A stretch of DNA of 42,679 nucleotides from a bacterium (GTDB taxonomy: Bacteria; Babelota; Babeliae; Babelales; RVW-14), in NCBI GenBank assembly GCA_023249935.1, contig JAHFBQ010000002.1, positions 1-42,679 on the forward strand, in the 5' to 3' direction. Within the stretch, counting starts at the first letter, position 1. Every line of letters begins with the position of its first letter. The position numbers and the translations under genes were made by a program. The notes under the pieces were generated by a model. The model saw nothing but the letters and a program-made list of their open reading frames with translations. It searched no databases and was not told where the DNA came from. Positions 2,024-39,603 of this stretch are shown here, piece after piece.

Positions 2024-4954
2024 TTAAAATGCTTCACCAAGTGTAAGATACCATGCGTAATTGCTATCGTTTACAAATCGCTTCTTCCATTTCCATCCAA
2101 GATCAAAACGCAGAGGGCCGACAGGCGTTTTTAGGCGCAGTCCAAAGCCGGTGGCAGGATACCAACTCTTAGTGAGCCCTATGGTTCCAGCCTGACCGAG
2201 CGCGCCGATATCTTGAAATACAACACCTTGAAGGCGTTTTGAAATTATTGGAAAGCGAACCTCAAGATTTGCATTGAACATGGAGCTGCCACCTTGGATA
2301 GAATATTCCGTTGTAGTTATCTCTTCGCCATTGACCGTTATTGTTTTTGTAGAGGTACCAATGGGTGGGAGCGAATCTTTTTCATAGCCACGTACCGAGT
2401 TTGGTCCTCCGAGAAAGAATCTCTCAATGGGCATAATAGTTTCAAATAGACGTCTAAAAATATGACCAAAGCGAACGTGACCAGCAATAATGATATCTTC
2501 ATAGAGGGGATAGAAGGCAGACTGTTCCAGCGCAATGCGCACAGAATAATCGGCAATACTTGTTGGGAGCATGAGTTTGCAAGCAACAAGGCTGAAGGTA
2601 CCACGGGTTGTATTAATTTTATCATCAAGCTGGTCGATAATTATATTTGGTTCAATAAAAACATAGCGCATGTAACGATTAAGTAGTGTTGGGTCAAATC
2701 GGATATTGCCAGTAACATTGCTTGTCTTTATCCATTCATTACCAAGATTGAGACCAAAAAAGAAGTGGTCTTTGTATTCTTCGTTGAGTGCGACAATTCC
2801 ACCAACCTGATCTGCCTGAAATGCTGAAGGACTGGAGGCTATGCGTAGTGGGTGCGTAAATTCGTTGGCATATAATTTTATTTTACCCAGTAATGGAATA
2901 TTGAAGAGTGATGGTTGTTGGTATTCTAAGTTGAACTTGCGTTCAAATTTGCTTAAATCAGTATCAAACGTGATCTTGTCTGCTCGATTGGTAGGATTTT
3001 TTACTATTGCAGAAGCACCAACCTTAGCGATAATTTCTTCAGTGAACTTTATTGAATTAAGCATAGCGGTCTTGCTTTTGAATAAGGAGCTATCGCTTGG
3101 TACGTAGACGCCAGCACGTAAACGTACCTCGAATGGATCATCATCAGCTATAGTAATAATAACAGGCTTCTGGCGCTTAGTGTTTCCTTGGTGGGGTTGT
3201 ACTTGAACGCGTTTAAAGACATCTAAGCGCTTTAATTTTTTACGAGTCAGATCAATTTTCTCTTTATTCCATACATCGCCTTCTTGGAATTTTATTTCAT
3301 TTTTTATTCGGTCGAATGGCAATTTTGTATTGCCGCGAATGGTGACTTTACCAAAGGTAATTTGTGTTCCTGGTTCAATATTCCAAGAAACAAATACCTT
3401 TTTTACCGCTTTGTTTGCGTATTCGGCACTCGCGAGTGGTTCTTCTTGTAGCTCGAAGTTAACATTGGCATGCCAATAACCATCTTCTTGAAAGGTGGCA
3501 ATGAGTAGGTTCTTTTGTTCACTCAACCAGGATTGATTAAATGGAATGTGTTGATGGTTATTGCGTAAATGGAATTTTTTAAATCCAGGGAGTGATTCTA
3601 ATGTCTGATGGCCTTTTACCTCAAAACCGCCCCATAGCCGCTGAATTCCTTTGTTGATGAAGATCGTGACAATAAGTTTTCCTGAAAGTTCATTGATGTG
3701 ATTTTGTTGATCAACAATAGTAAAGTCCCAATAACCATTCTTCTCATAGAGACGCTTGAATTCATGCAATTTTTGATCAAATAAGCTTTGGTCAAAAAAA
3801 TCTTTTTCAATGAGTTCTCGCCAAAAATATGAGCTGTCTTCTTGGGCTAAGGTATTCGCGTGTTTAACTTCAATGGATTCTAGTTTTGCAGGGGTTCCTT
3901 CGTGGATGGTGAATGTATTAACATCATTCTCTTTTTCATGAGTAACTGTTGTTCCAATAAAACCTCGGCGTTCATATTCATGAATTATTTGTTCGCAAAT
4001 AATATCTGGAGAGAAGAGCCAGTTTGGCTGATCATCGCCAAGAATTTTTTCTTTAATGATGGTGCTAGAAAGAACTTTATTACCAATAAGGTAAATAATC
4101 TTTCTACTGCCGGGCTCTATAATAAATGCGATGTTAACCAATTTATGATCGGAACAGCGACTTTTTTTCATGGTAATACGCGGTTGCTCGAAGCCTTCAG
4201 CTACGAGCTTTGCTTTGAGAGAGAGCGCAATCTTTTTCAAATATTCTTTATCGTAAGCATGTTTGGAAAAAAAATCCTTAAATTCATGCTGTGTTTTGTT
4301 AATAACACTATTTACTGCCTCTGCATGCACAGGATCTGTTTGGTGCGTGATATTGATCGAATTAATGTAATAGCGCTTGCCATGGGTGATGCGAAGACGA
4401 ACTAAAATTGTTTTGTTGATTGCATTGTAATTAAGCTCATCATCAATGAGGCCATCAAAATATCCTTGATCATTTAGAAATCTCTGAATATTTTGCATAG
4501 ATTCGTCATGAAGATTACCATCAAAGACATCGCCAGGTTGTTGCAAATATTGGGCACCATATTCATATTTACCAAATAAAAAACCTGTAACTTTGACTTT
4601 GCTCAAAAGCCATTGTCCTTCAAGTCTAAACTCAAGGTGTTTACCCTGGTTACCATCAAGCAGATTGATGCTGATATTATTGAAACGCTGCGTACGCATC
4701 AGATTGCGATATGCGCGTTGGACATCGGATTTGTTAACGAAGGTGTTTGGTTCAAGGCTTACAAGATAATCAAATTCTGTTTTTGAGAAGGGAATGTCGG
4801 CGGTGAAACTTATTTTTTCTAAATAAAAAGAAGTATTTTCTATCTCACTTAATGTTTTGGTAGAAACATCAAACGATCCCCCAAGTGTTGCTGAGAGTTG
4901 TAAGGCGATTGAAAAAATGCCAAGAACTATAACGCTATAGTAAAAAAATTTCAT
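2024..4954 (-). CDS. Omp85-family outer-membrane protein, BamA/TamA-like paralog with a long POTRA region (976 aa)
   Basis: N-terminal signal peptide and a repeated POTRA-like region of about 600 aa. C-terminal barrel carries the L6 motif GGPNSVRGY and a terminal aromatic residue (..LGEAF). Confidence 0.8.
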   Translation of the reverse strand: MKFFYYSVIVLGIFSIALQLSATLGGSFDVSTKTLSEIENTSFYLEKISFTADIPFSKTEFDYLVSLEPNTFVNKSDVQRAYRNLMRTQRFNNISINLLDGNQGKHLEFRLEGQWLLSKVKVTGFLFGKYEYGAQYLQQPGDVFDGNLHDESMQNIQRFLNDQGYFDGLIDDELNYNAINKTILVRLRITHGKRYYINSINITHQTDPVHAEAVNSVINKTQHEFKDFFSKHAYDKEYLKKIALSLKAKLVAEGFEQPRITMKKSRCSDHKLVNIAFIIEPGSRKIIYLIGNKVLSSTIIKEKILGDDQPNWLFSPDIICEQIIHEYERRGFIGTTVTHEKENDVNTFTIHEGTPAKLESIEVKHANTLAQEDSSYFWRELIEKDFFDQSLFDQKLHEFKRLYEKNGYWDFTIVDQQNHINELSGKLIVTIFINKGIQRLWGGFEVKGHQTLESLPGFKKFHLRNNHQHIPFNQSWLSEQKNLLIATFQEDGYWHANVNFELQEEPLASAEYANKAVKKVFVSWNIEPGTQITFGKVTIRGNTKLPFDRIKNEIKFQEGDVWNKEKIDLTRKKLKRLDVFKRVQVQPHQGNTKRQKPVIITIADDDPFEVRLRAGVYVPSDSSLFKSKTAMLNSIKFTEEIIAKVGASAIVKNPTNRADKITFDTDLSKFERKFNLEYQQPSLFNIPLLGKIKLYANEFTHPLRIASSPSAFQADQVGGIVALNEEYKDHFFFGLNLGNEWIKTSNVTGNIRFDPTLLNRYMRYVFIEPNIIIDQLDDKINTTRGTFSLVACKLMLPTSIADYSVRIALEQSAFYPLYEDIIIAGHVRFGHIFRRLFETIMPIERFFLGGPNSVRGYEKDSLPPIGTSTKTITVNGEEITTTEYSIQGGSSMFNANLEVRFPIISKRLQGVVFQDIGALGQAGTIGLTKSWYPATGFGLRLKTPVGPLRFDLGWKWKKRFVNDSNYAWYLTLGEAF

Positions 4955-5070: not shown

Positions 5071-5349
5071 TTAGCCGATTACGCGAAAGACTCCGCGAAA
5101 ATTTTTTTCGTTGATGAATGGTTCGATAACAACGTCACGAATTTTGATGTCAGATGTGCCTTTGTAGATATGATCAATTAATTCATCTAGATTGTCTGAT
5201 TGACCACATGCAAAAATAAGAATATCGTCACCCTCATGATTTTGAAGTGTACCTTCAATATGAAGCTTTTGGGCTTGCTTTTGAATGACTTCTTTATATG
5301 ACAATGATTGTACTTGCCCGGTAATGATTATTTTGATGCATTGCTTCAT
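5071..5349 (-). CDS. Acylphosphatase-like domain protein (divergent phosphate-binding loop)
   Basis: About 92 aa. ITGQVQSLSYK resembles the acylphosphatase signature V-x-G-x-VQGVxFR, and EGTLQNHEGDDI resembles signature 2. Start set at the ATG (5349) preceded by AAAGGAG. Confidence 0.55.
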   Translation of the reverse strand: MKQCIKIIITGQVQSLSYKEVIQKQAQKLHIEGTLQNHEGDDILIFACGQSDNLDELIDHIYKGTSDIKIRDVVIEPFINEKNFRGVFRVIG

Positions 5350-5468
5350 ACGATCTCCTTTTATCATCCTTATGCAGTTTTCGTGGTGCTTCGTTACGTT
5401 GACGTAATCCTACCAAAAGAAATTTTTAAAAGTCAAAAACACGTATGAAAAGCATTGATTATGTTGAT

Positions 5469-6608
5469 CTAGCGCGCAAACTCAAGTTTGGTGTAAAGGC
5501 TTTCGTGCTGAGTAACCATTGATCTGGCCGAGAAAGATGACAGATCTTGTACATGATTTTGTAGGCGATTGAGAAGTTGTGGATCTTCTATAAGGTTTTG
5601 TAGGTGCTGTGCAAGCGCAAATTTATCTCCTGCTGTAACAAGATAGCCGTTGAGATTATTTTGTACTACTTCTCCGATGCCGCCGACATCATAAGCAACA
5701 ACAGCAAGTCTTGCTAGGCGTGCTTCAATGACAGAGCATGGAAGCCCTTCCCAGAGGGAGCTTAGAGTGAAAATATCCCAACTATGTAAAAACTTTTGCA
5801 CGTTGCTTTGCCAGCCGTGAAGTGTGATTACATTTTGTAGATTATGGTCTTTGATCCACCATTCAATTGCTGTTCGTTGAGTACCGTCGCCAACAATTTC
5901 AAGTGTTGTTTGTGGGTGTGCACGATGAACGACCGCAAATGCTTCGAGTAAATCGAATAAATTTTTCTGTGGTTTGAAACAAGAAATAGCGCCAATCGTA
6001 ATCTTTGTTCGAGAAGGAGAAAGCTTGCGAGCAGGTTCTATGAAATGATTATCATCAACCGCGGCACGTATAATGAGGCTTTTTTTTGCAAAGCCAAGGA
6101 GTAATTTGCTACCGAGCACTTGGTCTTTGTGGGAGACGCAAATAATTTGTGTTGTAATCAGTGTTGTGACCCATTCAAGAGCGACGAATAAGACCCATTC
6201 TGGCCAAGATTGAAAATCATGAAAGCCAAAGCCATGGATAGTGTGTACGCGATGTTTAATGCCAGCAAGCAATGCTGCCCAGCGGCCTAGAATTCCGGCC
6301 TTTGTGCTATGAGTGTGTACAATGATATTGGGAAATTGTGCCTTATAGCGATGCATAAGGCGTATGAGTCCGAAGAATGTTTTAAGTTCCTGTGCAATAC
6401 CACGTATCGATAGCTCGCGCTTGAATGAATCAAGTAATATGCAGCCAGGTGTTTTTTTTGCTTCCTCAACCAAAACTCCTTCGGTACCAGAAATGAGCAT
6501 GGCATTGTGATTATCGTGTACGAGGCCTTGGTGAAGTGTTAAACAAACTTTCTGTGCGCCACCGAGTTCAAGCTTGGTCAAGATATACAAGACATTAAGC
6601 TGTTTCAT
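5469..6608 (-). CDS. GT4-family (GT-B fold) glycosyltransferase
   Basis: N-terminal LGGAQK motif. C-terminal EGLPCSVIEA...AYDVGGIGEVV is typical of GT4 enzymes. Confidence 0.85.
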   Translation of the reverse strand: MKQLNVLYILTKLELGGAQKVCLTLHQGLVHDNHNAMLISGTEGVLVEEAKKTPGCILLDSFKRELSIRGIAQELKTFFGLIRLMHRYKAQFPNIIVHTHSTKAGILGRWAALLAGIKHRVHTIHGFGFHDFQSWPEWVLFVALEWVTTLITTQIICVSHKDQVLGSKLLLGFAKKSLIIRAAVDDNHFIEPARKLSPSRTKITIGAISCFKPQKNLFDLLEAFAVVHRAHPQTTLEIVGDGTQRTAIEWWIKDHNLQNVITLHGWQSNVQKFLHSWDIFTLSSLWEGLPCSVIEARLARLAVVAYDVGGIGEVVQNNLNGYLVTAGDKFALAQHLQNLIEDPQLLNRLQNHVQDLSSFSARSMVTQHESLYTKLEFAR

Positions 6609-6648
6609 ACAACCTCTAATCTCAGATGTGTCGAGAAGTTCGGCTACC

Positions 6649-7599
6649 TTAAACCTTTGTGATTAACATGAGTGTAATGATCATTGCATAAATAATTGCT
6701 GACTCAATGAAAGCAACGACGAGCAAGGTAGTGCGGAGCAAAATTGAGTATAAGTCAGGATTTTGAGCGATTCCCTCTACGCTCTTTGAGGCGGTAAATC
6801 CTATACCAGTCGCCGTGCCCAGCGCGCCTAAGCCAATGGTTAAAGCTGCGGTAATTAGGATTAATGCATCACTGATAAGTGCGCCATCAAGTGGCCTGAA
6901 TAATATGATTATACCGATAAGTAAGCAAAAAATGAGAGGTGTCTCAATAATTGCTTCAAGGAGGAGCATAAATGGAAATATTTTGTTATAGGCTTCTTTG
7001 TTTGTTCCAATGCCCTTGCATGCTGCCTGTGTGAAAATTGCTTGTCCAATGGAGGGCCCGATACTGCCAAGACCAACGGCAAGGCCTGCTGCAAGTCCTT
7101 GTAGGCCGAATAATAATTCAGGGTTTGCATTTATGCGTGTTCGAATAAGCAGTGACACGATAAACGCGATAATGACTGGTGCTTCCATGATCGATTGCGC
7201 AAGTAGCATAACTGTTGTAACTTTTTGGGAAAAAAAAGGTTGGCGGCTAATGCTTTCTGCTGCGGCTCTAACAACAAAGCTTGAGGCGATACTGACCGCT
7301 CCTCCTGCAAAGCCGATTGCGGCAGCGATACCTAGTTCACCAACGGCAATGCCGATAGTAAGTGGCTGGGTGCTGAAAATAATCATAAGGGCTGTTACAA
7401 GTGCAATGATAATGCCGCTTTCAATTAGCGCAAGGCCAATGATAAGGGCACGAAAATTTGCTTGATAGCTGCATGGTTGTCGCTGGATTGCGGCGATGGT
7501 GGCAATACTTGCTATACCTTGTCCGATGCCGCCGCCGAGAACAGCAATTGCCAGTGTTAGAAAGGCTGCGCTGTAGTGAATGATTTGAGCTATGAGCAT
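6649..7599 (-). CDS. atpE: ATP synthase Fo c-subunit-like protein with four fused c hairpins (8 TM)
   Basis: 316 aa containing four tandem units. Each unit has a Gly-rich helix 1 (GGGIGQGIAS, GFAGGAVSIAS, GLGSIGPSIGQA, GLGALGTATGIG), a polar loop (RQP, RQP, TNK, QNP) and a helix-2 Glu (LIESG, IMEAP, IIETP, FIESA). It lies directly downstream of the a subunit. Confidence 0.75.
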   Translation of the reverse strand: MLIAQIIHYSAAFLTLAIAVLGGGIGQGIASIATIAAIQRQPCSYQANFRALIIGLALIESGIIIALVTALMIIFSTQPLTIGIAVGELGIAAAIGFAGGAVSIASSFVVRAAAESISRQPFFSQKVTTVMLLAQSIMEAPVIIAFIVSLLIRTRINANPELLFGLQGLAAGLAVGLGSIGPSIGQAIFTQAACKGIGTNKEAYNKIFPFMLLLEAIIETPLIFCLLIGIIILFRPLDGALISDALILITAALTIGLGALGTATGIGFTASKSVEGIAQNPDLYSILLRTTLLVVAFIESAIIYAMIITLMLITKV

Positions 7600-7610
7600 A
7601 CAAAGACCTT

Positions 7611-8444
7611 TCAGTGTGGTTGTGTGTCTTCTTGGTGAGCTATGCCCATAGAAAGATAGGTAAGTGTGAGCATCATAACAACGAATGATTGAATAAGTCC
7701 TTCAAAAACCCCAAAAAAGAGTTGTGCCCAAGTGAGAAAGAATATGAGAACAGATATGCCGCTTAGAATAGAGGCAAGAATGCCTTCTCTTGGGAGTAGG
7801 TTAACATGAGCGAGGAGTGTGTGTAGTGCAAAATAGATGACAGCTAGGACGAGAAAATAATTGGCATACCCCTGTACAAAGTTGACCATCATCATAAACA
7901 CAACGCCACCGCCGAGAATGTTGCCAAATAATCGAAAAGACATTGAAGCAATTTTGGCGAGTTCTCCAACAATATTGATTGGAGCCAAAAGAAAAAAAGG
8001 CTGTAAGTATTCTTTAGAATATCCCAAGATGCCATGTGCTCGAATTTTTTGATATTGAACATAACAAAAACTTGAAAGACCTATTGCCAGCGTTGTATTG
8101 AGGTCTCTTGTTGCTTCATCTAAAAATGGGAACAGGCCAATAATGCAACAAAAAAGGGTGAATAGGAATAGCGATGAAACAAAAGCAAAATAGCGGAATT
8201 CAAAAAAACCGAAAGCGTCTTTAGTTGTATTCATAAGAAAACGAACAACGACTTCAAAAAGAATTGAAATTCTGTTGGGTCCTCTCTTGAGTGCCCAGCG
8301 TCCAATGCACACCAGTGAAAAAAAAAGTATCATCGCGGCCCAAGTGTCTCTTAGGGTGTCGAGATTAATCGTCCAAAAAAAGTGCGTAAATCCAAGATTT
8401 TCTAGTGGGCGGATTTGGTAGTAATCAAAAATAGAGACGCTCAT
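7611..8444 (-). CDS. atpB: ATP synthase Fo a subunit
   Basis: Polytopic membrane protein with the conserved SFRLFGNILGG stator-arginine motif. Start set at the ATG (8444), which overlaps the upstream stop as ATGA and is preceded by AAGAGGA. Confidence 0.85.
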   Translation of the reverse strand: MSVSIFDYYQIRPLENLGFTHFFWTINLDTLRDTWAAMILFFSLVCIGRWALKRGPNRISILFEVVVRFLMNTTKDAFGFFEFRYFAFVSSLFLFTLFCCIIGLFPFLDEATRDLNTTLAIGLSSFCYVQYQKIRAHGILGYSKEYLQPFFLLAPINIVGELAKIASMSFRLFGNILGGGVVFMMMVNFVQGYANYFLVLAVIYFALHTLLAHVNLLPREGILASILSGISVLIFFLTWAQLFFGVFEGLIQSFVVMMLTLTYLSMGIAHQEDTQPH

Positions 8445-8737
8445 AACATCCTCTTTGTATGGACAAACAGGCTCAGTAGGAAGCCGGCTACTATGAAGAT
8501 AGAGCATGTCTGTAAGTCGATCCGTCCTGTGGAGTGCAGTGCAAAAATAATGCCAATAATGATCAGAAAACGCATAACGAGAAAGAATATATGTTGTCCT
8601 ATGGCAGATAGCTTACCTGGATTTTGGCCCATAGAAAAGCCTTTAATGAGGGACTTTGTTTGCTTTTTGAAAAGCAGGGCATACAAGAATCCAATGGCTA
8701 TTCCGCATATGGCTGAGATAATTAATTGGCTAGGCAT
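8441..8737 (-). CDS. Small 3-TM membrane protein, AtpI/AtpR-like
   Basis: 98 aa with three hydrophobic helices and an Arg inside the second (FLVMRFLIIIG). Translationally coupled to the a-subunit gene by a 4-nt overlap. Its position matches atpI or N-ATPase atpR. Confidence 0.5.
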   Translation of the reverse strand: MPSQLIISAICGIAIGFLYALLFKKQTKSLIKGFSMGQNPGKLSAIGQHIFFLVMRFLIIIGIIFALHSTGRIDLQTCSIFIVAGFLLSLFVHTKRML

Positions 8738-8990: not shown

Positions 8991-9569
8991 ATGAATGCAA
9001 AAAAGATGATACTGTTACTCGGACTTGCTGTTGGGGTAGGGCAAGATTGCTTAGCGAAGGCTAGTGCTGTACACAGGGCTCCAGAGCAGGCAAGGCCAGC
9101 CGTTCCGGCAGTTGGTGTGCAATACAAGCTTGGTCAGTTATGGTCATTAATTAATACCTCCAACCCAGCACAAACATCTAATTTTATCTTAGCATCGCTA
9201 AGTGGGCAGGTTATGCAGGATGTGGTACAAACTCAGGGGGCGTTTCCTGATGGTTCAGTCGCTGCTGATCGTGTGAATTTTGGTGGTGTTGTGATTAATA
9301 GAGCTTGGATTCAAGCAAATCAAGGTGTGCAGGTTCAGTTGCAAGCGGATCCAGCATTAGTCAATTATCTAGTGCAGCATAACAGAGTTTCGTCTGGAAA
9401 GAATGCTCGTGATTATGAACGGATATTGTTGTACTTTGTGCTAAAAATCGGCGCAGCTAGCTATCGTTTTTACCTGAATGATCCTTTTCCAGGGGGAATT
9501 CAAGGGAAGGTTAATCCAGCTCGTATGATTATTAAAAAATGGGATCTTGACGCTATGTATAGGCCATAG
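8991..9569 (+). CDS. Hypothetical secreted protein
   Basis: Signal peptide MNAKKMILLLGLAVGVGQDCLAKA and a strong SD (GGGGAGAAGGGGGA). I recognise no family motifs. Confidence 0.6.
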   Translation: MNAKKMILLLGLAVGVGQDCLAKASAVHRAPEQARPAVPAVGVQYKLGQLWSLINTSNPAQTSNFILASLSGQVMQDVVQTQGAFPDGSVAADRVNFGGVVINRAWIQANQGVQVQLQADPALVNYLVQHNRVSSGKNARDYERILLYFVLKIGAASYRFYLNDPFPGGIQGKVNPARMIIKKWDLDAMYRP

Positions 9570-9587
9570 TAAATCTCTAAAAAGCTT

Positions 9588-9623
9588 GCCGCAGCTCTCT
9601 AAAAGAGAGCTGCGGCTTTTTTG
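9588..9623 (+). terminator. Rho-independent terminator
   Basis: 12-bp stem GCCGCAGCTCTC/GAGAGCTGCGGC with loop TAAAA, followed by TTTTTTG. Confidence 0.75.
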
Positions 9624-9697
9624 TTGCATACATGACTCTGGTCGCGTTAGCATCTCCTAATGAAGTACAATTCCCCTTTTCTAGAAAGGAATACTAT

Positions 9698-10810
9698 ATG
9701 AATGGGATGATGCGATATTGGCGCACGTTAGCGCTATTTTCTTGTGTGTTGTTATGTCGGGATTTGACGGCAAATATATTTTATTCTACTGCCAATGCAG
9801 ACCGAAATAATACTCAGAATCTAACAAATAGTAATGTCAATGCTTATCAAAGCACCACATACACTTTTACTCGGCCATCTCACGAACTACGTGGTCTATT
9901 TATGCTTAAAGATGGATTTACTATTAACTCTGGTGTTACCGCATGTTGGAATGCTGAAGGGGTTGTCGATGGACCTATGATATTTGCTGCTACAAGCTCT
10001 ATTCTTACGCTTTCTACTAGTATGCGCCTTGGGCCTAAAGGACAATTTGCAACAACAGATCATAAGGTCACGGCAAGCGCCAACGCATTTTTTCTTGGTG
10101 GAAATGATGCGCGGCTTACTACAACAATGCGCAATTACAGTTCTTTGAGAATAAATGGCTCTGGGTATGTGTTTACTATACAACCAACCTCTGGTGGCGT
10201 AAATCCCGGGGGTGAATTTTTCTTTACTACCCCTACAGACAATACTTGTCGCCTTAATGAAATGGTGCTTGCCTGTGGGAAGGGGTCGGCAAGGGGTGCT
10301 ATTTTTAATAGCCCTACCCATATATCCAATTCAATAATCTTAAGTGCCCCACCTGATGGCCAATATACAAAATTCGGAGCTGGATCAAGCTACTCACTGA
10401 CAATTACGGGGGATGTACGCATTGAAGGTTTTGGTACCCGCTTTGACAATGGCTCTAGACCAATCACAATTGGCAGAAACTCAATGTTGTCAGTTGGTCC
10501 TGGTATTGCTCTGACAGGGGTATCAAGTTTGACAATGACCGACACAACATCTGTATTACACCTAGATGGCTGTGATTTTTATGTAGGGTCTTCTGGTGTG
10601 CAGATGAATAGAGGGACCTTGATTTTTGATGGCAAGGTTAGGATTTTAAATATCAACTATGGTGGCGATCCTCTCAGTCCAAATACGGTTATGGCAAACG
10701 GATTTGTACTTGGTAGTGGGGCTGGGTTTGCCGGTCAAGATGTTAATGTGATGGTTCGAGGCGGAGCATCTGTGATAGTTGCCGGAGCTATGCATTATAA
10801 TCACGCATAA
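9698..10810 (+). CDS. Hypothetical secreted protein, Gly/Thr/Ser/Asn-rich, possibly beta-helix/adhesin-like
   Basis: Start set at the ATG preceded by AAGGAA. Signal peptide MNGMMRYWRTLALFSCVLLC. Low-complexity beta-rich composition. No autotransporter barrel is seen. Confidence 0.55.
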   Translation: MNGMMRYWRTLALFSCVLLCRDLTANIFYSTANADRNNTQNLTNSNVNAYQSTTYTFTRPSHELRGLFMLKDGFTINSGVTACWNAEGVVDGPMIFAATSSILTLSTSMRLGPKGQFATTDHKVTASANAFFLGGNDARLTTTMRNYSSLRINGSGYVFTIQPTSGGVNPGGEFFFTTPTDNTCRLNEMVLACGKGSARGAIFNSPTHISNSIILSAPPDGQYTKFGAGSSYSLTITGDVRIEGFGTRFDNGSRPITIGRNSMLSVGPGIALTGVSSLTMTDTTSVLHLDGCDFYVGSSGVQMNRGTLIFDGKVRILNINYGGDPLSPNTVMANGFVLGSGAGFAGQDVNVMVRGGASVIVAGAMHYNHA

Positions 10811-13455: not shown

Positions 13456-13776
13456 ATGATTTCACAAGAAACAATTCAAGAGGCAATACAGCGCTTGGTT
13501 AAAGCATACAATCCGCTTATCATTTATTTCTATGGTCCATATGGATGGGGAACTCCAGATGATGATGATGATCTAAATATCTTGCTCATAATCGAGTCAT
13601 CAAATGAAAAAGCTCATAAAAGGGGATATAAGGCATTTGATGCATTATTCGGACTAGAAATTCCCTCGAGGGTAATTGTTTTTACAAAAGAAGAGTTTGA
13701 TATGTCCTCTCAAGACATAACATCACCAACTCATGAGATAAAAAACAAAGGGAAGATTGTCTATGCCAGGCCTTAG
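13456..13776 (+). CDS. Minimal nucleotidyltransferase (MNT/MntA-like antitoxin-type)
   Basis: 106 aa with a pol-beta NTase motif region YGPYGWGTPDDDDDLNILLI. Overlaps the downstream HEPN gene by 14 nt. Confidence 0.8.
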   Translation: MISQETIQEAIQRLVKAYNPLIIYFYGPYGWGTPDDDDDLNILLIIESSNEKAHKRGYKAFDALFGLEIPSRVIVFTKEEFDMSSQDITSPTHEIKNKGKIVYARP

Positions 13777-14140
13777 AGATTGGTTGAGAAAAGCATCAAG
13801 CGATTTAAAGGCATCAAAAAAATTATCTGATGATAATGAAACGCTTGATTGTTCAGTATTTCATACACAACAATGTGCGGAAAAAGCCTTCAAAGCATTT
13901 ATTGTGTTTACACAACAAGCAATTCCAAAAACACATGACCTTAAGTTTTTATTAGAACATTGCGCAAAAATTGATTCAGATTTTTTATTTCTGTTGGATG
14001 AAAGCATAGTTTTAGACGCTTATGGGTATGATTCAAGGTATCCCAGTGACAATTTTTATGTTGATAAACAAAGCACAATCGATGCTATTGAAATGGCAGA
14101 AAAAATCTTAATTACCATAAAAACTAAAATTAGTTTATAG
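13763..14140 (+). CDS. HEPN-domain protein (toxin-type partner of the NTase)
   Basis: HEPN-like helices HTQQCAEKAFKAF and THDLKFLLEHC. Start set at the ATG (13763) preceded by AAGGGAAG. The ORF track start at 13757 is a TTG. Confidence 0.8.
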   Translation: MPGLRDWLRKASSDLKASKKLSDDNETLDCSVFHTQQCAEKAFKAFIVFTQQAIPKTHDLKFLLEHCAKIDSDFLFLLDESIVLDAYGYDSRYPSDNFYVDKQSTIDAIEMAEKILITIKTKISL

Positions 14141-16395: not shown

Positions 16396-17219
16396 GCTTG
16401 CAGTGTTTCCCAAATTACTAGAAAATCATCGAAACTGAGTTGCTGAGCGCGCTTACTTAGCGTCTCTTCTGAGAGCCTAGCCAGATCATAATGTGTTGTA
16501 CGCAAGTTGTTTCTGAGAGTTTGACGAGGAGACTTAAAGCAAAGCTTTATGGTGTCCCAGAATAACGGTTCATTTGGGATGGATGGTCCTTGCCGTGGTG
16601 TCAGCTGTACGAGGCGAGAGAACACCTTGGGTGGCGGCGTGAATGCGCCCGGCTCGATTTTCTCTAGTAGCTTGATGGTGAAGTGGTGCTGAAAAAACAT
16701 GGTGACGGCGGAAAAGCTTCTGCCATGAGTGGCCGCAAGTTTCTGGCCGACTTCTTCTTGCACCATGATGACGATGTCGCCAAAACGGTCTTTACTTTTT
16801 TGTACCAGATATAAAATTGGGAAGGTGATTTGATAGGGAAGATTGGCGAGCATGATTAAGGGAGCTGCGCTTTCTACTGTATCAAATGATGCATCAAGAA
16901 TATTTTGTAAGCGTAGGTCAAGGCGTTGATCATGGATGTTGCCACGTACGTAGTCAGCCCATTCCTTGTCGATCTCAAAACAAACCAGCTTTTTGCATTT
17001 GGTTTGATTAAGAATAGCCCTGGTTAAGAACCCGTCGCCGCAACCGATTTCTACTACTGTAGTTTCGGGTGTGACGGTGACGGCGTTGATCATGTTGTCA
17101 ACGACGCTGTGTTTACGCAGGAAGTGTTGACCTAACTGCTTCTTTTTTGCAGGTAGGCCAGTATCAACGACTTCTTTGATCTTGTAATTTTTCTTAATAA
17201 ATTGTTTCATGAGTTCCAT
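16392..17219 (-). CDS. rsmA: 16S rRNA (adenine1518/1519-N6)-dimethyltransferase
   Basis: Motifs LGQHFL, VVEIGCGDGFLT (SAM binding) and ANLPYQIT. Confidence 0.95.
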   Translation of the reverse strand: MELMKQFIKKNYKIKEVVDTGLPAKKKQLGQHFLRKHSVVDNMINAVTVTPETTVVEIGCGDGFLTRAILNQTKCKKLVCFEIDKEWADYVRGNIHDQRLDLRLQNILDASFDTVESAAPLIMLANLPYQITFPILYLVQKSKDRFGDIVIMVQEEVGQKLAATHGRSFSAVTMFFQHHFTIKLLEKIEPGAFTPPPKVFSRLVQLTPRQGPSIPNEPLFWDTIKLCFKSPRQTLRNNLRTTHYDLARLSEETLSKRAQQLSFDDFLVIWETLQA

Positions 17220-17241
17220 ATGAATTGTTTTAGAGAGGATG

Positions 17242-17268
17242 GATCCCAGCGCCTGGGCTGGGATGACA
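17242..17268 (-). repeat. GTCATCCC-type small hairpin repeat, copy A
   Basis: Minus strand reads TGTCATCCCAGCCCAGGCGCTGGGATC. 8-bp stem ATCCCAGC/GCTGGGAT. Confidence 0.7.
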
Positions 17269-17338
17269 GGTCAAAAACACCCCTGTAAGGGCTCAAGAAT
17301 AGGCAAACCGGCATGGTTTGCAAGGGAATTTTTGCTTT

Positions 17339-17367
17339 TTGACAATTTTTAATACTTTTCTTACAAT
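17339..17367 (+). promoter_or_regulatory. Near-consensus sigma70 promoter for ssrA
   Basis: TTGACA (17339-17344), exactly 17-nt spacer, TACAAT (17362-17367), about 22 nt upstream of the mature tmRNA 5' end. Confidence 0.65.
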
Positions 17368-17389
17368 CAGTCCAGTTCTTTGAATGCCT

Positions 17390-17780
17390 GGGGGCGTACC
17401 GGTTTCGACGTGATGTTTTTTGCGTTGAGTGCATGTCGTGGTTTGTATGGGCCCACGTTAAAAAACTGTGCGAATAATAAGTGCTGAAGCACACACATTC
17501 GGTTTTGGTGACATGTTCCGCGGTAACGCGGCTGTCGCCCGTGCTTAATTAAGCGCGTGCCGCAAGCATATTTGGTACCTTCACCGTCTGGATCTGCTTG
17601 AACAAACAAAGGTGGGGTTTCTACGTGAGCTTAGTTTTGGGTAGCGTAGTCATACACGAAAAGCCCTGCATTATATTCTGTGTCTTTGAGGTGTAATGTA
17701 GGTATATTCAAAGACTGAACATGGAGTACTTGACGTTGGAAGTGTTGCGGACATGGGTTCAATTCCCATCGCCTCCACCA
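17390..17780 (+). ncRNA. ssrA: tmRNA (transfer-messenger RNA), one-piece, CCA encoded
   Basis: 5' end GGGGGCGTACCGGTTTCGACG. 3' end GGACATGGGTTCAATTCCCATCGCCTCCACCA. Acceptor stem GGGGGCG/CGCCTCC contains the G3:U alanine identity pair. T-arm is ATGGG-TTCAATT-CCCAT. Confidence 0.92.
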
Positions 17781-23509: not shown

Positions 23510-26017
23510 TTACCAGGCGTAATTCATAGTCAGATGAAACTCATGTGCGGATTCACCGGGCTGACGATCGAGCTTAAAGCCCCAATCAATTTTTGCGGGG
23601 AATGGTGATGTTAAATTGAGTCCAAGTCCAACGGTATGGCGTAGATTAAAATTGTTGCGGATTACAACATCATCAAACGTAATTTGTTGGCTTGCTGATT
23701 GAGTTGCGTTGAAATCATTGATGGATTTATTTGGTGTATCCCATGCAGCACCAAGGTCATAGAAGAAGTGTCCACGCATACCAAGTTGACGTGCCAGCGG
23801 GAAGCTTATCTCGTTGTTACACTGTACTGCGCTTCGGCCGCCTAGTGGCTCATTAGTTGAGCGCCACGCAGGCCCAATACCGCTCCAGATGTGACCGCGT
23901 ACCGTGTTGGGTCCCCCCATATGGAAAAGTTCTTTGTACGGGATACTCTTGTTTGCAGATAATTCTCGGATGTTGCAAACCTTAAGATGGTTGCCAAGCA
24001 CTAAGTCATCTTCATTCAAGATAGCATTGTACATGCTTGCCGCAGCTTCAAGTCTGAAGTAACCAAATGTTTGGTTAATAGGGCTTGGTGCTAATTTGCT
24101 GCCAACTGAAATTTTGTAGCCCTTGTTAGGATAGACCTGGTGGTTACGCATGTCCTTAACTAAGTCTAAACCAATCCAAAGTTGCGATCCTTGCTGGAAG
24201 GTGCGATCTACAATTAATTGATACAATGGATCTATACGCTGTAGTGCAATATTAGAGTTTACGGGGACTTTGGGATTGTTATTGTGAATTGTTTCAGCTC
24301 CGAGATCAAGTACAAGGGCAAGGCGTTTATCAAGTTCTGGGAGCCCAAAGCCAAAGCGGACGTTTGTGCCCATGGTGTGCATCGATGGGAGAACAGAGAG
24401 TGTGCGGAAGCGGTCATACTCATCCCAGCGGCGATAGAGGTAGAAGCCGCATGAGACATCTTTGTCAAAAACATGAGGATCAATGAGTCGAATTTCAAAG
24501 CGACGTAATCCTGGACGATTCCTATCAAATCCAGTTTTGATCGCAGCACCAGCATCGATGCCATGACCGAGTAAGTTACCTTTCTCTAAGAGGATAGAGC
24601 CTTGTAACTCCTGCTTCTGATCATTCTCGCCACTTGCACCATACGTCAATTGCGCATTAAAATTGCCGGTCTTTGCTTCTTTCACATTGAGTTCAAGATC
24701 TGCCAGATCATCAGCAACGCGATGAATAATCCAATTAACGCCCTTTGGTTCATAGAAACTCAAGAATTCAACAGCGCGCTTTGAGGTTTCAAGCTTATTA
24801 CTTGTGATGAGGTCTCCCTCTAAAATATCCAAGCGGCGGCGAATAAGGCTATCGCGCGTGTTTACATTGCCGCTGATGGTGATGCGGTTGGCATACAGTT
24901 TTTTGCCAGGATTAACCATGAAGGCAAGGTCAACTTCTTTTGAGTCATCATCTTGGCGAAGATTATCTGATATCTCGGCGTAAATGTAGCCTTTTTCTTT
25001 CCATAGCGCTGTCATGCGATCTATCGACTCAATAACTTCGTGACGAATGAAAGGATGCCCCTCTCTGATAGAGATTGCCGCTTCTGCCTCTTCGACTGAG
25101 ACGATGTCATCATGGGGAGGGATTACACGGCGTACGATGTATTGCTCACTTTCATCAATATGAAAAGTAACGGTAATATCTCTGCGGTTGTCAGAAAACT
25201 CAGTATCGGTTTTATAGACTTTGGTGTTGAAGAAGCCATGTTCAAAATAATAGCTCTCAATGATGCTTTTATCATATTCAACTCTGCGTTCATCAAAGGT
25301 TCCTGATCCGTCTCCAAAGCCCAGTATCCAACGCTCTTTGGTATGAAGATGTTTACGGAGTTTGCGAGCAGGAATTTTTTTATTTCCTTTAAATTCGACG
25401 CGCAAAACACTAGCTTTTTCGCCCTCATCAACGGTGAAAAATGCAGTTACCTTGGCGGGATTATCTTTGCTTTGTTGTAGATCAAATGACACCTGAGCGC
25501 GGTGAAATCCCTCATTGACATACATTGCTTGGACTGCTTGCGCAATATTTCGAGCACTTTCTTCATCAATGTAAGAAAGCTTAGCTAGTTCTAAAGATTC
25601 AGTAATTTTTTTTGTGCTAATGTCTGAGTTGCCCTTAAACTCAATGCCACTGAGCAATTTTTTCTCTTCGACAGTAATGGTGAGGTGGACGAGTGTGCCG
25701 TCTTCGCGGGCTTTTATTTCTATCTGTTTAAAAGCGCCAAGGCTATACAAATTATTGATAGCAATACCGCTTTTTTTTGTATCAAGAGGTTGTCCAACTT
25801 GGAATGGGATCTTGCTGCGTAGCACATCAGAACCAATATATTTATTACCCTCGATGTTTATCGATTTAATGATGAGATTCTTGCCAAGGGTTGTTGGATC
25901 ATTCTTTCTCAAAAAATTATCGAGATCAGAAGGAGCTTTTGCCGATGCTGAAAACATCAAGGCTGGTTGTATAAAAAAACAAAACAAGGCCGCAATTTTT
26001 TGGAGGGCTCTAGACAT
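23510..26017 (-). CDS. bamA: Outer-membrane protein assembly factor BamA
   Basis: 835 aa. Signal peptide, POTRA repeats (RITISGNVNTRDSLIRRRLDILEGDL), barrel with L6 motif GGPNTVRGH, and a terminal aromatic residue (..MNYAW). Confidence 0.9.
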   Translation of the reverse strand: MSRALQKIAALFCFFIQPALMFSASAKAPSDLDNFLRKNDPTTLGKNLIIKSINIEGNKYIGSDVLRSKIPFQVGQPLDTKKSGIAINNLYSLGAFKQIEIKAREDGTLVHLTITVEEKKLLSGIEFKGNSDISTKKITESLELAKLSYIDEESARNIAQAVQAMYVNEGFHRAQVSFDLQQSKDNPAKVTAFFTVDEGEKASVLRVEFKGNKKIPARKLRKHLHTKERWILGFGDGSGTFDERRVEYDKSIIESYYFEHGFFNTKVYKTDTEFSDNRRDITVTFHIDESEQYIVRRVIPPHDDIVSVEEAEAAISIREGHPFIRHEVIESIDRMTALWKEKGYIYAEISDNLRQDDDSKEVDLAFMVNPGKKLYANRITISGNVNTRDSLIRRRLDILEGDLITSNKLETSKRAVEFLSFYEPKGVNWIIHRVADDLADLELNVKEAKTGNFNAQLTYGASGENDQKQELQGSILLEKGNLLGHGIDAGAAIKTGFDRNRPGLRRFEIRLIDPHVFDKDVSCGFYLYRRWDEYDRFRTLSVLPSMHTMGTNVRFGFGLPELDKRLALVLDLGAETIHNNNPKVPVNSNIALQRIDPLYQLIVDRTFQQGSQLWIGLDLVKDMRNHQVYPNKGYKISVGSKLAPSPINQTFGYFRLEAAASMYNAILNEDDLVLGNHLKVCNIRELSANKSIPYKELFHMGGPNTVRGHIWSGIGPAWRSTNEPLGGRSAVQCNNEISFPLARQLGMRGHFFYDLGAAWDTPNKSINDFNATQSASQQITFDDVVIRNNFNLRHTVGLGLNLTSPFPAKIDWGFKLDRQPGESAHEFHLTMNYAW

Positions 26018-26138: not shown

Positions 26139-27659
26139 CTAGAGCTTGTTATTGGCAGCTTGATTTGGTTTGAAGAGGTGTTGGTAGATGACTGAGAATT
26201 CTTTTTGAGGAGAAACATTCTCTGGCAACCAGCGAAGTGTCTGCGCTTTAATATCATCAAGTATTGTTTTATGTATGCGAAAATTTGCAAGGACAGTTTC
26301 GCTTTGATGCTTGGTTAAGAAGAATTCTACAAACTTGTCCTTAAAGGTAACATTGATATCAACATCAAGTTGAGCGGGGTTTTTATCAAGCAGTGCTAGT
26401 ATTGGTGGTATTATAGCAACCGTAGGTAATGGAAAAATAAAAGATTCGTTGTCATTATGTTGTTGTTTTTCTGAGCCTAAAAACCAAAGAGATCTGTGGT
26501 CGGGATCTTTACTTGCTGGGCGTGTGCCGAGTAAAGAATCGACCATGGATGCTTTTTCGTTTGGCAGTTTTTTTACAATGTTTAATTGGCCATTGTCTTG
26601 AGATGTTGTGACTGGGCGTTCGTACATAATATTTACCTGAAGAATGCGAGGAATATCTTTTTGATAAGCAAATTTGTTTGCTTTAAGCAATAATTGAGCA
26701 TTAGCTCGTTGTTTACTTGTGGGATCTTTAGTTGAAACCCAATCCATTTGTTGAACCATATCTGCCGCTGAGTACATGTTGTAGATGGTTTTAAATATTG
26801 GTGAAACTAAAAAATTTTCTGTTTCAGGTTGAATTGGTGTGCCAAGTAGAATGAGTTCTTCGATTGAAAGATCTTTTTCGGTGGGAACGTAATCAAAACG
26901 TTTCTGATTTTTAGCATTAAGAGCAGACTCTTTGGTTGGCAATGTTTTCATGATTGCGAGCATTTTTTTAATGGAATCATCCATATCTTTGTCAAGAGAA
27001 TATTTGTGTCCATCGCTAAATGTTTTGGTGTGTAGAATTGGCGTAATGGCTCCCAAATTAAGGCACAAGTTGCCTCCATGTGAATGAGCAAGAAGGCGAA
27101 TCTTGGTTTCTATGTTTTGTGCGCGTAATGAGGAAATTTCTTCTTGCAGCGCATTAAAGAGACGAATGGCCTCGAATCGGCGACGCTGTTGACTCATAAG
27201 ACCGCTCCAGCCGAATGTGTAGTAATACTGTTCAGTATCTCCAGGCATTGTTACTCTTAAAAATTCGTCGAAAGCCTTGGTGATTGGGTAGGCGGCATAG
27301 CGAGGTTTATCATTAGTTGGTAAGGTGAATGTGGGTGTGATTTTGTGTAAGCCCCGTTCAAGAATAGCTTGGCTTTGGAAGAAAAACTTATCATCGCGCA
27401 TATCTCTGTTAAGGTCGCGATATGTTGTTCCTTGTACTTCATCCTTGAGAACATTATTCAAGCTAATGAGGCCAATGAGTGATCCAAAGCTGCCGTGAAC
27501 AAAAATATTTAACCAGACAGTTTTTCTAGGGGGTATTGCGGGTTTAGTAGAGGGGGTGTCTTCCCGTGAGGAGAAATGAGAATGAAAAATAGGTTGGAGA
27601 ATGAAAATGGTAGCTATGCCGCAGATCAATGATATTAAAATGATGAGTATTTTTTTCAT
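26139..27659 (-). CDS. Membrane-anchored alpha/beta-hydrolase (lipase/esterase-like)
   Basis: N-terminal TM anchor MKKILIILISLICGIATIFIL. Oxyanion-type FVHGSFGS and nucleophile elbow LLAHSHGGN (A-H-S-H-G). Start set at the ATG preceded by GAGGAT. Confidence 0.6.
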   Translation of the reverse strand: MKKILIILISLICGIATIFILQPIFHSHFSSREDTPSTKPAIPPRKTVWLNIFVHGSFGSLIGLISLNNVLKDEVQGTTYRDLNRDMRDDKFFFQSQAILERGLHKITPTFTLPTNDKPRYAAYPITKAFDEFLRVTMPGDTEQYYYTFGWSGLMSQQRRRFEAIRLFNALQEEISSLRAQNIETKIRLLAHSHGGNLCLNLGAITPILHTKTFSDGHKYSLDKDMDDSIKKMLAIMKTLPTKESALNAKNQKRFDYVPTEKDLSIEELILLGTPIQPETENFLVSPIFKTIYNMYSAADMVQQMDWVSTKDPTSKQRANAQLLLKANKFAYQKDIPRILQVNIMYERPVTTSQDNGQLNIVKKLPNEKASMVDSLLGTRPASKDPDHRSLWFLGSEKQQHNDNESFIFPLPTVAIIPPILALLDKNPAQLDVDINVTFKDKFVEFFLTKHQSETVLANFRIHKTILDDIKAQTLRWLPENVSPQKEFSVIYQHLFKPNQAANNKL

Positions 27660-27809
27660 ATGATCGGATCCTCGGATGTCTCCATTGTACAAGTTCCCCT
27701 CAATTATTTATTGTCACATCCCATAAGGAAAATCAAGAAAACATCGATTCTTGCAGCTTGCTTTTTTACAAACAGCAATTGATTGCCTTTTTGTTTAAGC
27801 GGGTTGTAC

Positions 27810-27823: not shown

Positions 27824-27879
27824 AGAAAGAAGACTGCTTTTCTTAATTGGGTGGGGATTTCTTACGCAAAGGCGCAATA

Positions 27880-37455: not shown

Positions 37456-37614
37456 AGAGGATCCTTTCTTTAAACCAAAATCCTAACCCATAAATTCCAT
37501 CGATGCAATCGCCTTGGACTTACGCCATGGATACCGGTATTTACAAAAATTCAATCTATTCGTATCCTTGTCTGGCATAAATCAACAAGCCGTATGGTTA
37601 CCCAAGGAGTTTTT

Positions 37615-39603
37615 ATGGATGTCCTACAATTTTCCATGATTTTTGTCGGCATTGCCCTGGCAGGGCTTGCATTGACAGCGCTTATTTTTGCCAAAGTAGT
37701 CAGCTTTAAAAATACGGATGTCCGCTCGGCGCATATCGCGCGGCTTATTCGTGAAGGAGCTATGACTTTTCTGTTCAAGGAATACGCCATTTTGGTAGGT
37801 GTTATAGCAGTTGCCTTTGCATTGCTTTCATACGTGATGCATCTTGCTGGCGGCGCGGCTTATGCTGTGGGGGCATTGTCTTCTATGTTAGCTGGTTACA
37901 TCGGTATGAAGGCGGCTACACGTGCTAACGAGGCAACGACCATCGCGGCAAGAGACCGTGGCGAACGCAGCGCATTTTTAACCGCTCTTTTGGGTGGTTC
38001 AGTCATGGGCTTTGTTGTGGCAAGTTTGGGACTGCTTGGTCTTGGCGGGATCTTCTTTCTTTGTGCTAGTCATGATCCACTTGAGTTTGTAAAAATTTTG
38101 ACATGTTTTGGTCTTGGTGCTAGCTCAATCGCTCTGTTTGCTCGCGTGGGCGGAGGTATTTATACCAAAGCTGCTGACGTTGGCGCAGACTTGGTTGGCA
38201 AAGTTGAAATGGGGATTCCTGAGGACGATCCACGTAACCCTGCGGTGATTGCTGATAACGTTGGTGATTGTGTTGGTGATACTGCTGGTATGGGTGCTGA
38301 TATATTTGAATCATATGTTGGTTCTGTCGTTGGCGCAATGGCGCTAGGTGTGACAGCTTTTGCAGGCAGACTTGAATATATCTCCTTGCCAATTATGCTG
38401 TGCGCGATTGGCTTGATTGCATCCTGCTTTGGCATGTTGTCTTCTTTTATTATTCGCATGAAAATCAGACACTTACTTCATATGGCAACTTACATCGCAA
38501 TTGCTGTTTTTGTTGCCGGTTCATATGCGTATCTTTCGTACATGAATATGAATATGAATCTTTTTGGTTCCATTGCATTGGGTGCTATTTCAGGTCTTAT
38601 TATTGGAGCTGTAACTGATTACTACACCAGTGGTCGCCCAATAAGACAATTGGCAGAGACATCAAAATCTGGAGCTGGAACAAATCTAATTTTTGGGCTT
38701 TCCATTGGTTTTGAATCTGTTGTTGCACCGATCTGTGCAATCGCTGTTATTGTATTTATTTCGCACGAATACTTTGGTGGATTATTTGGTGTATCGCTTG
38801 CAGCAGTTTCTATGTTGGCAACCGTTGGTATCACCATGACAATCGATGGTTATGGGCCGATAGCTGACAATGCTGGTGGTATTTCAGAAATGTCTGGGTT
38901 TGGTCCTGAAGTGAGAAAAATTACCGATCACCTTGATGCGCTTGGCAACATGACTGCCGCGCTTGGTAAGGGCTTTGCAATAGGTTCTGCTGTGTTTGCA
39001 GCCTTGGCAATCTTTGCTGCTTATTGTGAATATTCACATATCACAAGCCTTGATCTTCAAGATCCATTGGTAATTACTGGTCTCTTTATTGGTGCTACCT
39101 TGCCATACTTACTCTCTGCATTTACGATGCGCGCCGTAGGCCGTGCTGCGTGGAAGATGGTGATTGAAGTACGTCGTCAATTCAAAGAGATTCCAGGTCT
39201 GATGGAAGGTAAAACTGAGCCTGATTACAGTCGTTGCATTGGTATCTCAACGCATGCTGCATTGGTTGAAATGATCGTTCCAGGGTTGATTACTATTGCA
39301 GCTCCAGTATTTATCAAATACATTTTTGGCATCCATGGCAAGATGGCCCTTGGTGGTTTCTTGGCAGGCGCGACGGTGTCTGGTGTTTTACTTGCGCTGA
39401 TGATGGCAAACGCTGGTGGCGCATGGGATAACGCTAAGAAGTTTATCGAAGCAGGTAATTTTGGTGGGAAAGGCAGCGACGCGCACAAGGCGGCAGTTGT
39501 TGGTGATACTGTTGGGGACCCATTCAAAGACACATCAGGTCCATCTCTCAATATCTTGATTAAACTTATGTCGATGATTTCGCTCTTATTGGCGATGATC
39601 TAA
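37615..39603 (+). CDS. hppA: Membrane-integral pyrophosphatase, K+-dependent type with Na+-pump-like gate residue
   Basis: Motifs DNVGDCVGDTAGMGADIFESY, GNMTAALGKGFAIGSA and DTVGDPFKDTSGPSLNILIKLM. ATG at 37615 is preceded by AAGGAG. Confidence 0.95.
   Translation: MDVLQFSMIFVGIALAGLALTALIFAKVVSFKNTDVRSAHIARLIREGAMTFLFKEYAILVGVIAVAFALLSYVMHLAGGAAYAVGALSSMLAGYIGMKAATRANEATTIAARDRGERSAFLTALLGGSVMGFVVASLGLLGLGGIFFLCASHDPLEFVKILTCFGLGASSIALFARVGGGIYTKAADVGADLVGKVEMGIPEDDPRNPAVIADNVGDCVGDTAGMGADIFESYVGSVVGAMALGVTAFAGRLEYISLPIMLCAIGLIASCFGMLSSFIIRMKIRHLLHMATYIAIAVFVAGSYAYLSYMNMNMNLFGSIALGAISGLIIGAVTDYYTSGRPIRQLAETSKSGAGTNLIFGLSIGFESVVAPICAIAVIVFISHEYFGGLFGVSLAAVSMLATVGITMTIDGYGPIADNAGGISEMSGFGPEVRKITDHLDALGNMTAALGKGFAIGSAVFAALAIFAAYCEYSHITSLDLQDPLVITGLFIGATLPYLLSAFTMRAVGRAAWKMVIEVRRQFKEIPGLMEGKTEPDYSRCIGISTHAALVEMIVPGLITIAAPVFIKYIFGIHGKMALGGFLAGATVSGVLLALMMANAGGAWDNAKKFIEAGNFGGKGSDAHKAAVVGDTVGDPFKDTSGPSLNILIKLMSMISLLLAMI

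Follow-up and report, generated by a model that had tools for sequence, protein, structure and literature searches.

The locus analysed here is very probably the membrane core (Fo) of a complete F1Fo ATPase whose genes are dispersed over the genome, accompanied by a candidate AtpI-like assembly factor. It lies on contig JAHFBQ010000002.1 of the assembly GCA_023249935.1 (GTDB lineage Babelota; Babeliae; Babelales), a stretch of 42,679 nucleotides that is called the window below. Four consecutive open reading frames (ORFs) on the minus strand, at 5469-8737, encode from 5′ to 3′ a small membrane protein, the a subunit of an F-type ATPase, a c subunit made of four fused hairpins (hereafter c4) and a GT4 glycosyltransferase. 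An earlier note on this DNA had presented them as an orphan Fo-like module and had left the choice between a split set of atp genes and a stand-alone ion-conducting unit, either co-opted for another use or a relic. The evidence set out here, drawn from the proteins themselves, from the same locus in relatives and from the position of the F1 genes in Babela massiliensis, favours the split set.

The layout given in that note was found again as stated on re-reading. The small ORF (98 amino acids (aa), 8441-8737) ends with a TGA stop that shares the tetranucleotide ATGA (8444-8441) with the ATG of atpB, and atpB encodes the 277-aa a subunit (7611-8444; PF00119, E=1.7e-34). The c4 gene (6649-7599, 316 aa; four PF00137 matches, E=5.1e-41) starts 11 nt after the stop of atpB, and the GT4 gene (5469-6608; PF00534 and PF13439) follows at 40 nt. 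We also agree that the window holds neither b nor F1 genes: a Pfam search of its 27 long ORFs, shadow ORFs being left out, detected no alpha, beta, gamma, delta, epsilon or b subunit in the 42.7-kb contig, and nothing like b, delta or epsilon was seen among eight Pfam-negative ORFs inspected by eye. Three other Pfam-negative ORFs (26139-27692, 27847-30366 and 9632-10810), which stood outside this visual check, encode 392-839 aa and are far larger than any of these three subunits.

The c4 protein is a c subunit of F-type. It scores above the cut-offs of the F-type c models TIGR01260 and NF005363, and its AlphaFold model, built with 27 homologues (predicted local distance difference test, pLDDT, 93.8; predicted template modelling score, pTM, 0.88), displays eight long transmembrane (TM) helices arranged in four hairpins. 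Each hairpin carries one carboxylate (E60, E139, E219 and E299), aligned with E65 of Ilyobacter tartaricus and D61 of Escherichia coli. In F-type c rings, the R-Q-P loop is the contact surface for gamma and epsilon. This loop is RQP in hairpins 1 and 2 of c4 and QNP in hairpin 4, while it is lost (TNK) in hairpin 3. The four hairpins are about 25-30% identical to each other, and the internal repeats do not show the pattern (1 resembling 3, 2 resembling 4) that a duplication path from c to c2 to c4 would leave.

This architecture is shared by a large family. An exhaustive HMMER search through 1.84 billion cluster representatives returned about 140 c4 clusters at 50% identity (E<=1e-30), nearly all of 310-325 aa and colinear over their full length; from this uniformity we consider c4 to be a fixed and ancient architecture of the phylum. 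The homologues that carry a name, again of 310-325 aa, are labelled Candidatus Dependentiae, Babeliales or TM6, and the bacterium behind the window belongs to this parasitic phylum, the Dependentiae (TM6/Babeliales). Clustering at 90% identity leaves at least 245 groups, and in an alignment of 245 members the hairpin-1 carboxylate is never lost (E in 241, D in 4). Loop 2 is close to invariant (R in 238, Q in 222, P in 243), as is the Gln of loop 1 (239), whose R and P are found in 178 and 191 members, respectively. The carboxylates follow the pattern EEEE, that of the window, in 128 members, EQED in 59 and EQEE in 19; in about 40% of the family, Babela included, another residue, mostly Gln, takes the place of the hairpin-2 carboxylate. 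The HMMER search also met giant fused c proteins, namely P0267 (968 aa, 13 hairpins), P0334 (1139 aa, 15 hairpins), P0366 (524 aa, about seven hairpins) and P0304 (406 aa, five hairpins), in which several sites are Gln.

The c4 fusion had been called unusual in the earlier note, and so it appears: a four-hairpin F-type c subunit is found throughout the phylum, and our literature searches found no description of one in Dependentiae. A list of c subunits published in 2022 by the Müller laboratory gives forms with 1, 2, 3 or 13 hairpins, four not being among them (PMC9171764). In the PDB, the closest match is the Acetobacterium woodii c1 subunit, both by sequence (4BEM_J, E=9.6e-16, aligned to hairpins 3-4) and by fold (4BEM_J, E=3.5e-5, 32% identity), and no PDB chain spans more than half of the c4 model (TM-score relative to the query, TMq, <=0.43). 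The A. woodii c1 has two hairpins and one ion site and occurs as a single copy in a ring otherwise made of one-hairpin c2/3 subunits (PMC9171764). Both proteins are thus F-type c subunits enlarged via internal duplication, but c4 has four hairpins, each of which keeps its carboxylate in this organism; no other c gene lies at the locus, and c4 presumably builds the entire ring. As it brings four carboxylates per subunit, the ring would contain a multiple of four hairpins and may be a (c4)n assembly of 8, 12 or 16 hairpins.

Fusion of hairpins in one polypeptide also recalls the c (K) subunits of archaeal A-type and V-type enzymes, which have 2, 3 or 13 hairpins, and the change from E to Q in hairpin 2 across some 40% of the c4 family parallels the loss of sites in the V-type. 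In contrast to these proteins, c4 is F-type in sequence and adjoins an F-type a gene. It is quite conceivable, while still somewhat short of probable, that Dependentiae make their whole F-type rotor ring from c4, with 8, 12 or 16 hairpins, and that, in a large subclade, loss of the hairpin-2 site has repeated the V-type gear shift independently in a bacterial F-type enzyme, which would move fewer ions for each ATP and serve solely as a pump. Assignment of c4 itself as a V/A-type proteolipid was rejected, the V-type K models giving 27-49 bits against cut-offs of 101-211 and all four carboxylates being kept in the window protein.

The a subunit is equally recognizable. It reaches 120 bits with PF00119, against a cut-off of 33.9, and its top NCBIfam models are ‘F0F1 ATP synthase subunit A’, with scores under the equivalog cut-offs; this failure with the strict equivalogs indicates a divergent protein. 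Its SFRLFGNIL segment matches residue for residue the essential-Arg motif of the chloroplast subunit 6FKF_a. This Arg, equivalent to R210 of E. coli, stands in the R-L-x-G-N motif of the penultimate helix; the earlier note had already taken the arginine of RLFGN as the essential one. In one relative, L017, the a gene (9230-10001 of CAVXJI010000003.1, a 1.50-Mb contig of a metagenome-assembled genome (MAG)) is broken into two ORFs, 9230-9649 and 9714-10001, by a frameshift or an assembly error.

The small protein upstream is more difficult to name. Inspection of its sequence suggests three hydrophobic segments, the second of which (FFLVMRFLIII) contains Arg56. In each of the 19 Dependentiae loci compared, and in Babela, an ORF of 78-108 aa with three TM segments stands immediately 5′ of the a gene; in an alignment of 20 members, all share G16 and Y19, G12 is almost as constant and 15 keep the TM2 Arg. 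The ‘AtpI/AtpR-like’ label proposed earlier finds weak backing in these orthologues, seven of the 20 giving weak matches to PF03899 (ATP-synt_I; best E=4.7e-4) and two touching AtpR (PF12966) at E=0.2, while the window copy matches no family in Pfam and NCBIfam profile searches (PF03899: none at E<=0.1). AtpI, or UncI, is known as a chaperone of c-ring assembly in Propionigenium. Like AtpI/UncI, the window protein is a small polytopic membrane protein whose gene lies directly 5′ of atpB, in translational coupling with it; unlike them, it has three predicted TM segments instead of the usual four, and no significant PF03899 match. With modest confidence, we regard it as a divergent AtpI-like candidate assembly factor for the c-ring.

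The small ORF, a and c4 form a stable unit in relatives. Two peptide patterns derived from c4 were used to scan the GTDB species genomes, and 80 loci were kept, 17 of which encode a full-length c4. Among these 17, most titles read Babeliales, Dependentiae, TM6, Vermiphilus pyriformis, Noda2021 or Chromulinivoraceae MAG, and the remaining ones are unspecific or clearly mistaken (bacterium, uncultured bacterium, uncultured Pseudomonadota). At the other 63 loci the matches are much shorter and mostly represent single-hairpin c genes from Nitrospirota, Desulfobacterota and others. When the window proteins were compared by tblastn with the 19 Dependentiae loci, the synteny across relatives that the earlier note had proposed to look for was evident, the cluster of small ORF, a and c4 being found in 19 of 19. 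Four MAGs labelled ‘uncultured Pseudomonadota’ (L007, L009, L012 and L015) hold typical Dependentiae loci, and their taxonomic labels are probably wrong.

The question is then where the F1 and b genes are. No alpha or beta P-loop ORF was detected within 10 kb of c4 in the 19 Dependentiae loci, from which we conclude that this locus never includes F1 in the phylum. The complete genome of Babela massiliensis gives the clearest answer. There, an 84-aa hypothetical protein with three TM segments, AtpB (261 aa) and AtpE (320 aa, eight TM segments) are encoded at 296.9-299.0 kb (PMC4378268, Additional file 9), whereas AtpG is solitary at 491 kb, about 190 kb away, between genes for a PIN/YacP protein and a CAAX protease (PMC4378268). 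AtpA, AtpD, AtpG, AtpH, AtpC, AtpF and AtpB are listed in one copy each in this genome (COG table, Additional file 11, PMC4378268), and AtpA, D, G, H, C and B are present in TM6SC1 (PMC4378268 supplements). According to Yeoh et al. 2016, ATP synthase is encoded in all genomes studied there and belongs to the orthologues that the seven genomes share (PMC4776705); L001, which is LDIV01, comes from the set of five genomes that these authors deposited.

The isolation of gamma is general among the loci at hand. With Babela AtpG as query we obtained 665 relatives, the best 120 of which are 42-98% identical to it, several being named Dependentiae; a profile of 16 gamma relatives gave 1660 matches (E<=0.001), among which origin was checked for the 120 listed. 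Gamma is solitary in every gamma locus fetched (L004-L006, L087, L088 and L091-L093), with a TsaE-YacP(NYN) pair 5′ of it in all those with upstream sequence (L004-L006, L087, L088, L091 and L092). On two contigs, of 1,496,855 and 1,746,605 bp (L017 and L019), gamma and c4 occur together, the contigs being equated by their identical bp figures. In Dependentiae, murA often lies 3′ of the solitary atpG. One gamma protein, P0125, is labelled Novosphingobium sp. although its locus is typical of Dependentiae, and this taxonomic label is probably wrong.

Split atp sets exist in other bacteria: alphaproteobacteria have separate Fo and F1 operons, cyanobacteria the atp1 and atp2 clusters, and Aquifex several loci. 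The arrangement in Dependentiae is comparable in that a, c and a small atpI-like gene share one locus with F1 elsewhere, the enzyme being assembled in trans. It differs by a more extreme dispersal, b lying apart from a and c and gamma standing alone in a TsaE-YacP-atpG context, phylum-wide. The first option of the earlier note, a split set of atp genes, is therefore sustained at the level of the phylum by the Babela cluster and its single atpA, D, G, H, C and F genes elsewhere. That note had also said that a complete atpFHAGDC cluster found elsewhere, with a phylogeny matching that of a and c, would make this an ordinary split operon; the remaining genes do lie elsewhere at phylum level, in dispersed positions and not in one such cluster.

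The genes surrounding the unit are less stable than the unit itself. In the window clade, GT4 is followed by an acylphosphatase gene (5071-5367, minus strand; PF00708, E=1.8e-14) and by the gene of a 976-aa Omp85-family outer-membrane protein (2024-4954, minus strand; PF01103 and PF07244), both conserved neighbours; the Omp85 position is kept in L001, L002, L007, L009, L010, L014, L015 and L089, and L001 shows the exact synteny of the window with a c4 that is 54% identical. A GT4 gene lies 3′ of c4 in 13 of the 19 loci, directly in 12 and after about 600 nt in L023, and is not at this position in the other six or in Babela; it is missing there in the clade of Babela, Vermiphilus, Noda2021 and Chromulinivoraceae. 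This Babela-like clade (Vermiphilus, Noda2021, Chromulinivoraceae) carries FolC 5′ of the cluster and other genes 3′ of c4. No terminator-like site was detected in the 40-nt gap between c4 and GT4 by a promoter and terminator scan whose overall counts were not above shuffled expectation. GT4 is thus a syntenic neighbour, possibly co-transcribed, with no evidence of functional coupling to the ATPase.

Several other readings of the locus have to be weighed, beginning with that of a stand-alone orphan Fo, in which F1 and b would have been lost and a and c4 would either work alone as a rotor that conducts ions, passively or with gating, or persist as a decaying relic. Nonsynonymous divergence (pN) was compared with L002, an 86%-identical relative in which synonymous sites are saturated (about 0.75-0.8). 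It amounts to 0.094 for c4, the most conserved long protein of the neighbourhood, and to 0.121 for a, against 0.136 for the phosphoenolpyruvate synthase, 0.174 for Omp85 and 0.206 for GT4. Purifying selection on c4 and a is thus stronger than on their housekeeping neighbours, so these genes are not relics; moreover, conservation of the F1-docking RQP loops as high as that described above would be unexpected for a free-standing rotor. Although the lack of F1 and b genes in the 42.7 kb and within 10 kb of c4 in the 19 relatives speaks for an orphan Fo, relatives with an identical cluster carry F1 elsewhere. An uncapped Fo would also be a deleterious proton leak. We find the orphan Fo very unlikely, be it stand-alone, co-opted or decaying, and as the atp genes form an ordinary, fragmented ATPase set, this claim of the earlier note should be dropped. 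An Fo coupled to the envelope genes GT4, acylphosphatase and Omp85, energising for example glycan or lipid export instead of F1 or besides it, seems more improbable still: the order a-c4-GT4-acylphosphatase-Omp85 is kept down to about 45-50% c4 identity, and the 40-nt gap is free of terminator-like sites, but the invariant unit comprises only the small ORF, a and c4, and GT4 is missing at this place from six loci and from Babela, where MutS-like or cysteine-synthase-like genes lie 3′ of c4. Reduced genomes commonly keep gene order without functional coupling, and we know of no mechanism linking Fo to a GT4 enzyme. Least credible of all is an N-ATPase-type module with the small protein as AtpR. 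The succession of a small Arg-containing protein, a and c does resemble atpR-atpB-atpE and two of the 20 orthologues touch PF12966 (E=0.2), yet more of them match AtpI than AtpR, a divergent gene for a secreted protein stands upstream in place of atpD-atpC-atpQ, and GT4 stands downstream in place of atpF-A-G. The alternate-F1F0 models for A (TIGR03306, 81 against 302) and C (TIGR03322, 94.5 against 130.85) do not reach their cut-offs, and the ordinary F0F1 models score higher. We reject membership in the N-ATPases (atpDCQRBEFAG) on this operon structure together with the sub-cut-off scores.

A more serious contender, although we hold it to be unlikely, is a complete F1Fo enzyme that is coupled to Na+ and forms, with a Na+-translocating membrane pyrophosphatase, a sodium-based energetics. 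The earlier note had hinted at such a link, and its pyrophosphatase half fares better than its c-ring half. The enzyme, encoded at 37594-39603 on the plus strand (PF03030, E=2.6e-241) and thus a second primary ion pump of this genome, has a K+-dependent signature; in alignment with the Vigna H+-pyrophosphatase 4A01, IFESYVG stands opposite LFGSYAE, which places Glu at 6.53 and Gly at 6.57, and GNMTAA gives Ala at 12.46. It scores 832 bits with NF001960, ‘sodium-translocating pyrophosphatase’ (cut-off 546), and is also above the cut-off of the H+ model TIGR01104. Judged by these residues, its ion specificity is probably of Na+-type, whereas the TM6 literature calls this pyrophosphatase a proton pump (PMC4776705). 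For c4, the hairpins were aligned to the I. tartaricus c sequence in its canonical numbering. In hairpins 1 to 4, Q32 corresponds to Q, I, Q and I, E65 to E throughout, S66 to S, A, T and S, T67 to G, P, P and A, and Y70 to I, I, F and Y. Hairpins 1 and 3 thus combine a helix-1 Gln with E-S or E-T and hairpin 4 has E-S...Y, and in the family the hairpin-1 Gln is found in 186 of 245 members and S or T after the Glu in 227 of 245, all of which would suit Na+. Against it, none of the four hairpins of the window c4 has the complete Q32/E65/S66/T67/Y70 set, Gln is missing from hairpins 2 and 4, and hairpin 2 has E-A; because sites form between neighbouring hairpins, at most about a quarter of them would be complete. 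The TM6 papers, for their part, assume protons (PMC4776705, PMC6561590).

We therefore return to the complete F1Fo ATPase with dispersed genes. In its simplest form, a would act as the stator and c4 as the rotor ring, the two together forming the ion-translocating membrane core, and the small AtpI-like protein would assist ring assembly as UncI does. The atp operon would have been broken up in Dependentiae, the small ORF, a and c4 being kept together and translationally coupled, with gamma and, going by the Babela inventory, alpha, beta, delta, epsilon and b encoded elsewhere in the genome. Dependentiae have neither a tricarboxylic acid cycle nor an electron-transport chain, possess ATP/ADP translocases and are described as using their ATP synthase in reverse (PMC4776705, PMC6561590). 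Without a respiratory chain and with ATP imported from the host, the enzyme most likely runs, going by this literature, as an ATP-driven ion pump, which would maintain the membrane potential for secondary transporters alongside the pyrophosphatase.

Several points weigh against this picture. Gamma and c4 share a contig, as equated by identical bp figures, in the Babela-like clade only, and gamma was not found on the c4 contigs of the window clade, by the profile search and on three further contigs. The TM6 papers say ‘ATP synthase’ only, without a subunit list for the Yeoh genomes (PMC4776705, PMC6561590). The window is a whole 42.7-kb contig, and for this genome and, by direct sequence, its closest clade we infer the F1 and b genes. 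The lack of any family match for the window small protein counts on the same side, and both the hydrolytic mode and the coupling ion are deduced, from the literature and from residues, respectively.

An orphan Fo would have meant a new use for the rotor/stator pair. What remains of interest is a phylum-wide, four-hairpin F-type c subunit together with an extreme scattering of the atp genes. Because of this scattering, an atp gene missing from a contig is uninformative on loss in Dependentiae, which matters for metabolic reconstructions from MAGs. A c4 with lineage-specific silencing of sites offers a natural experiment on ring stoichiometry and on the ion-per-ATP ratio in a pump-only F-ATPase, and cultured isolates in which it could be followed are Babela, Vermiphilus, Chromulinavorax and Noda2021.

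Some other features of the contig deserve mention. A 192-aa protein with a signal peptide is encoded divergently next to the atp cluster (8991-9569, plus strand; no match in Pfam) and is kept at the same place in relatives, as 2-3 tandem copies (6951-8478 in L001, 6626-8527 in L007). Besides the Omp85-family protein at 2024-4954 (minus strand), a second one, an 835-aa BamA-like protein with five POTRA repeats, is encoded at 23510-26017 on the minus strand. HEPN proteins are often paired with an MNT-type partner as toxin-antitoxin systems. Here, a HEPN ORF (13757-14140, plus strand; PF05168, E=6.9e-24) is overlapped by a 106-aa ORF (13456-13776, plus strand; no match in Pfam), and the two may form a toxin-antitoxin module. 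Finally, a tmRNA gene is located at 17390-17780 on the plus strand (Rfam RF00023, 156 bits), with the tag peptide AEAHTFGFGDMFRGNAAVARA, and the 95-aa ORF overlapping it on the minus strand (17207-17494) is probably spurious.

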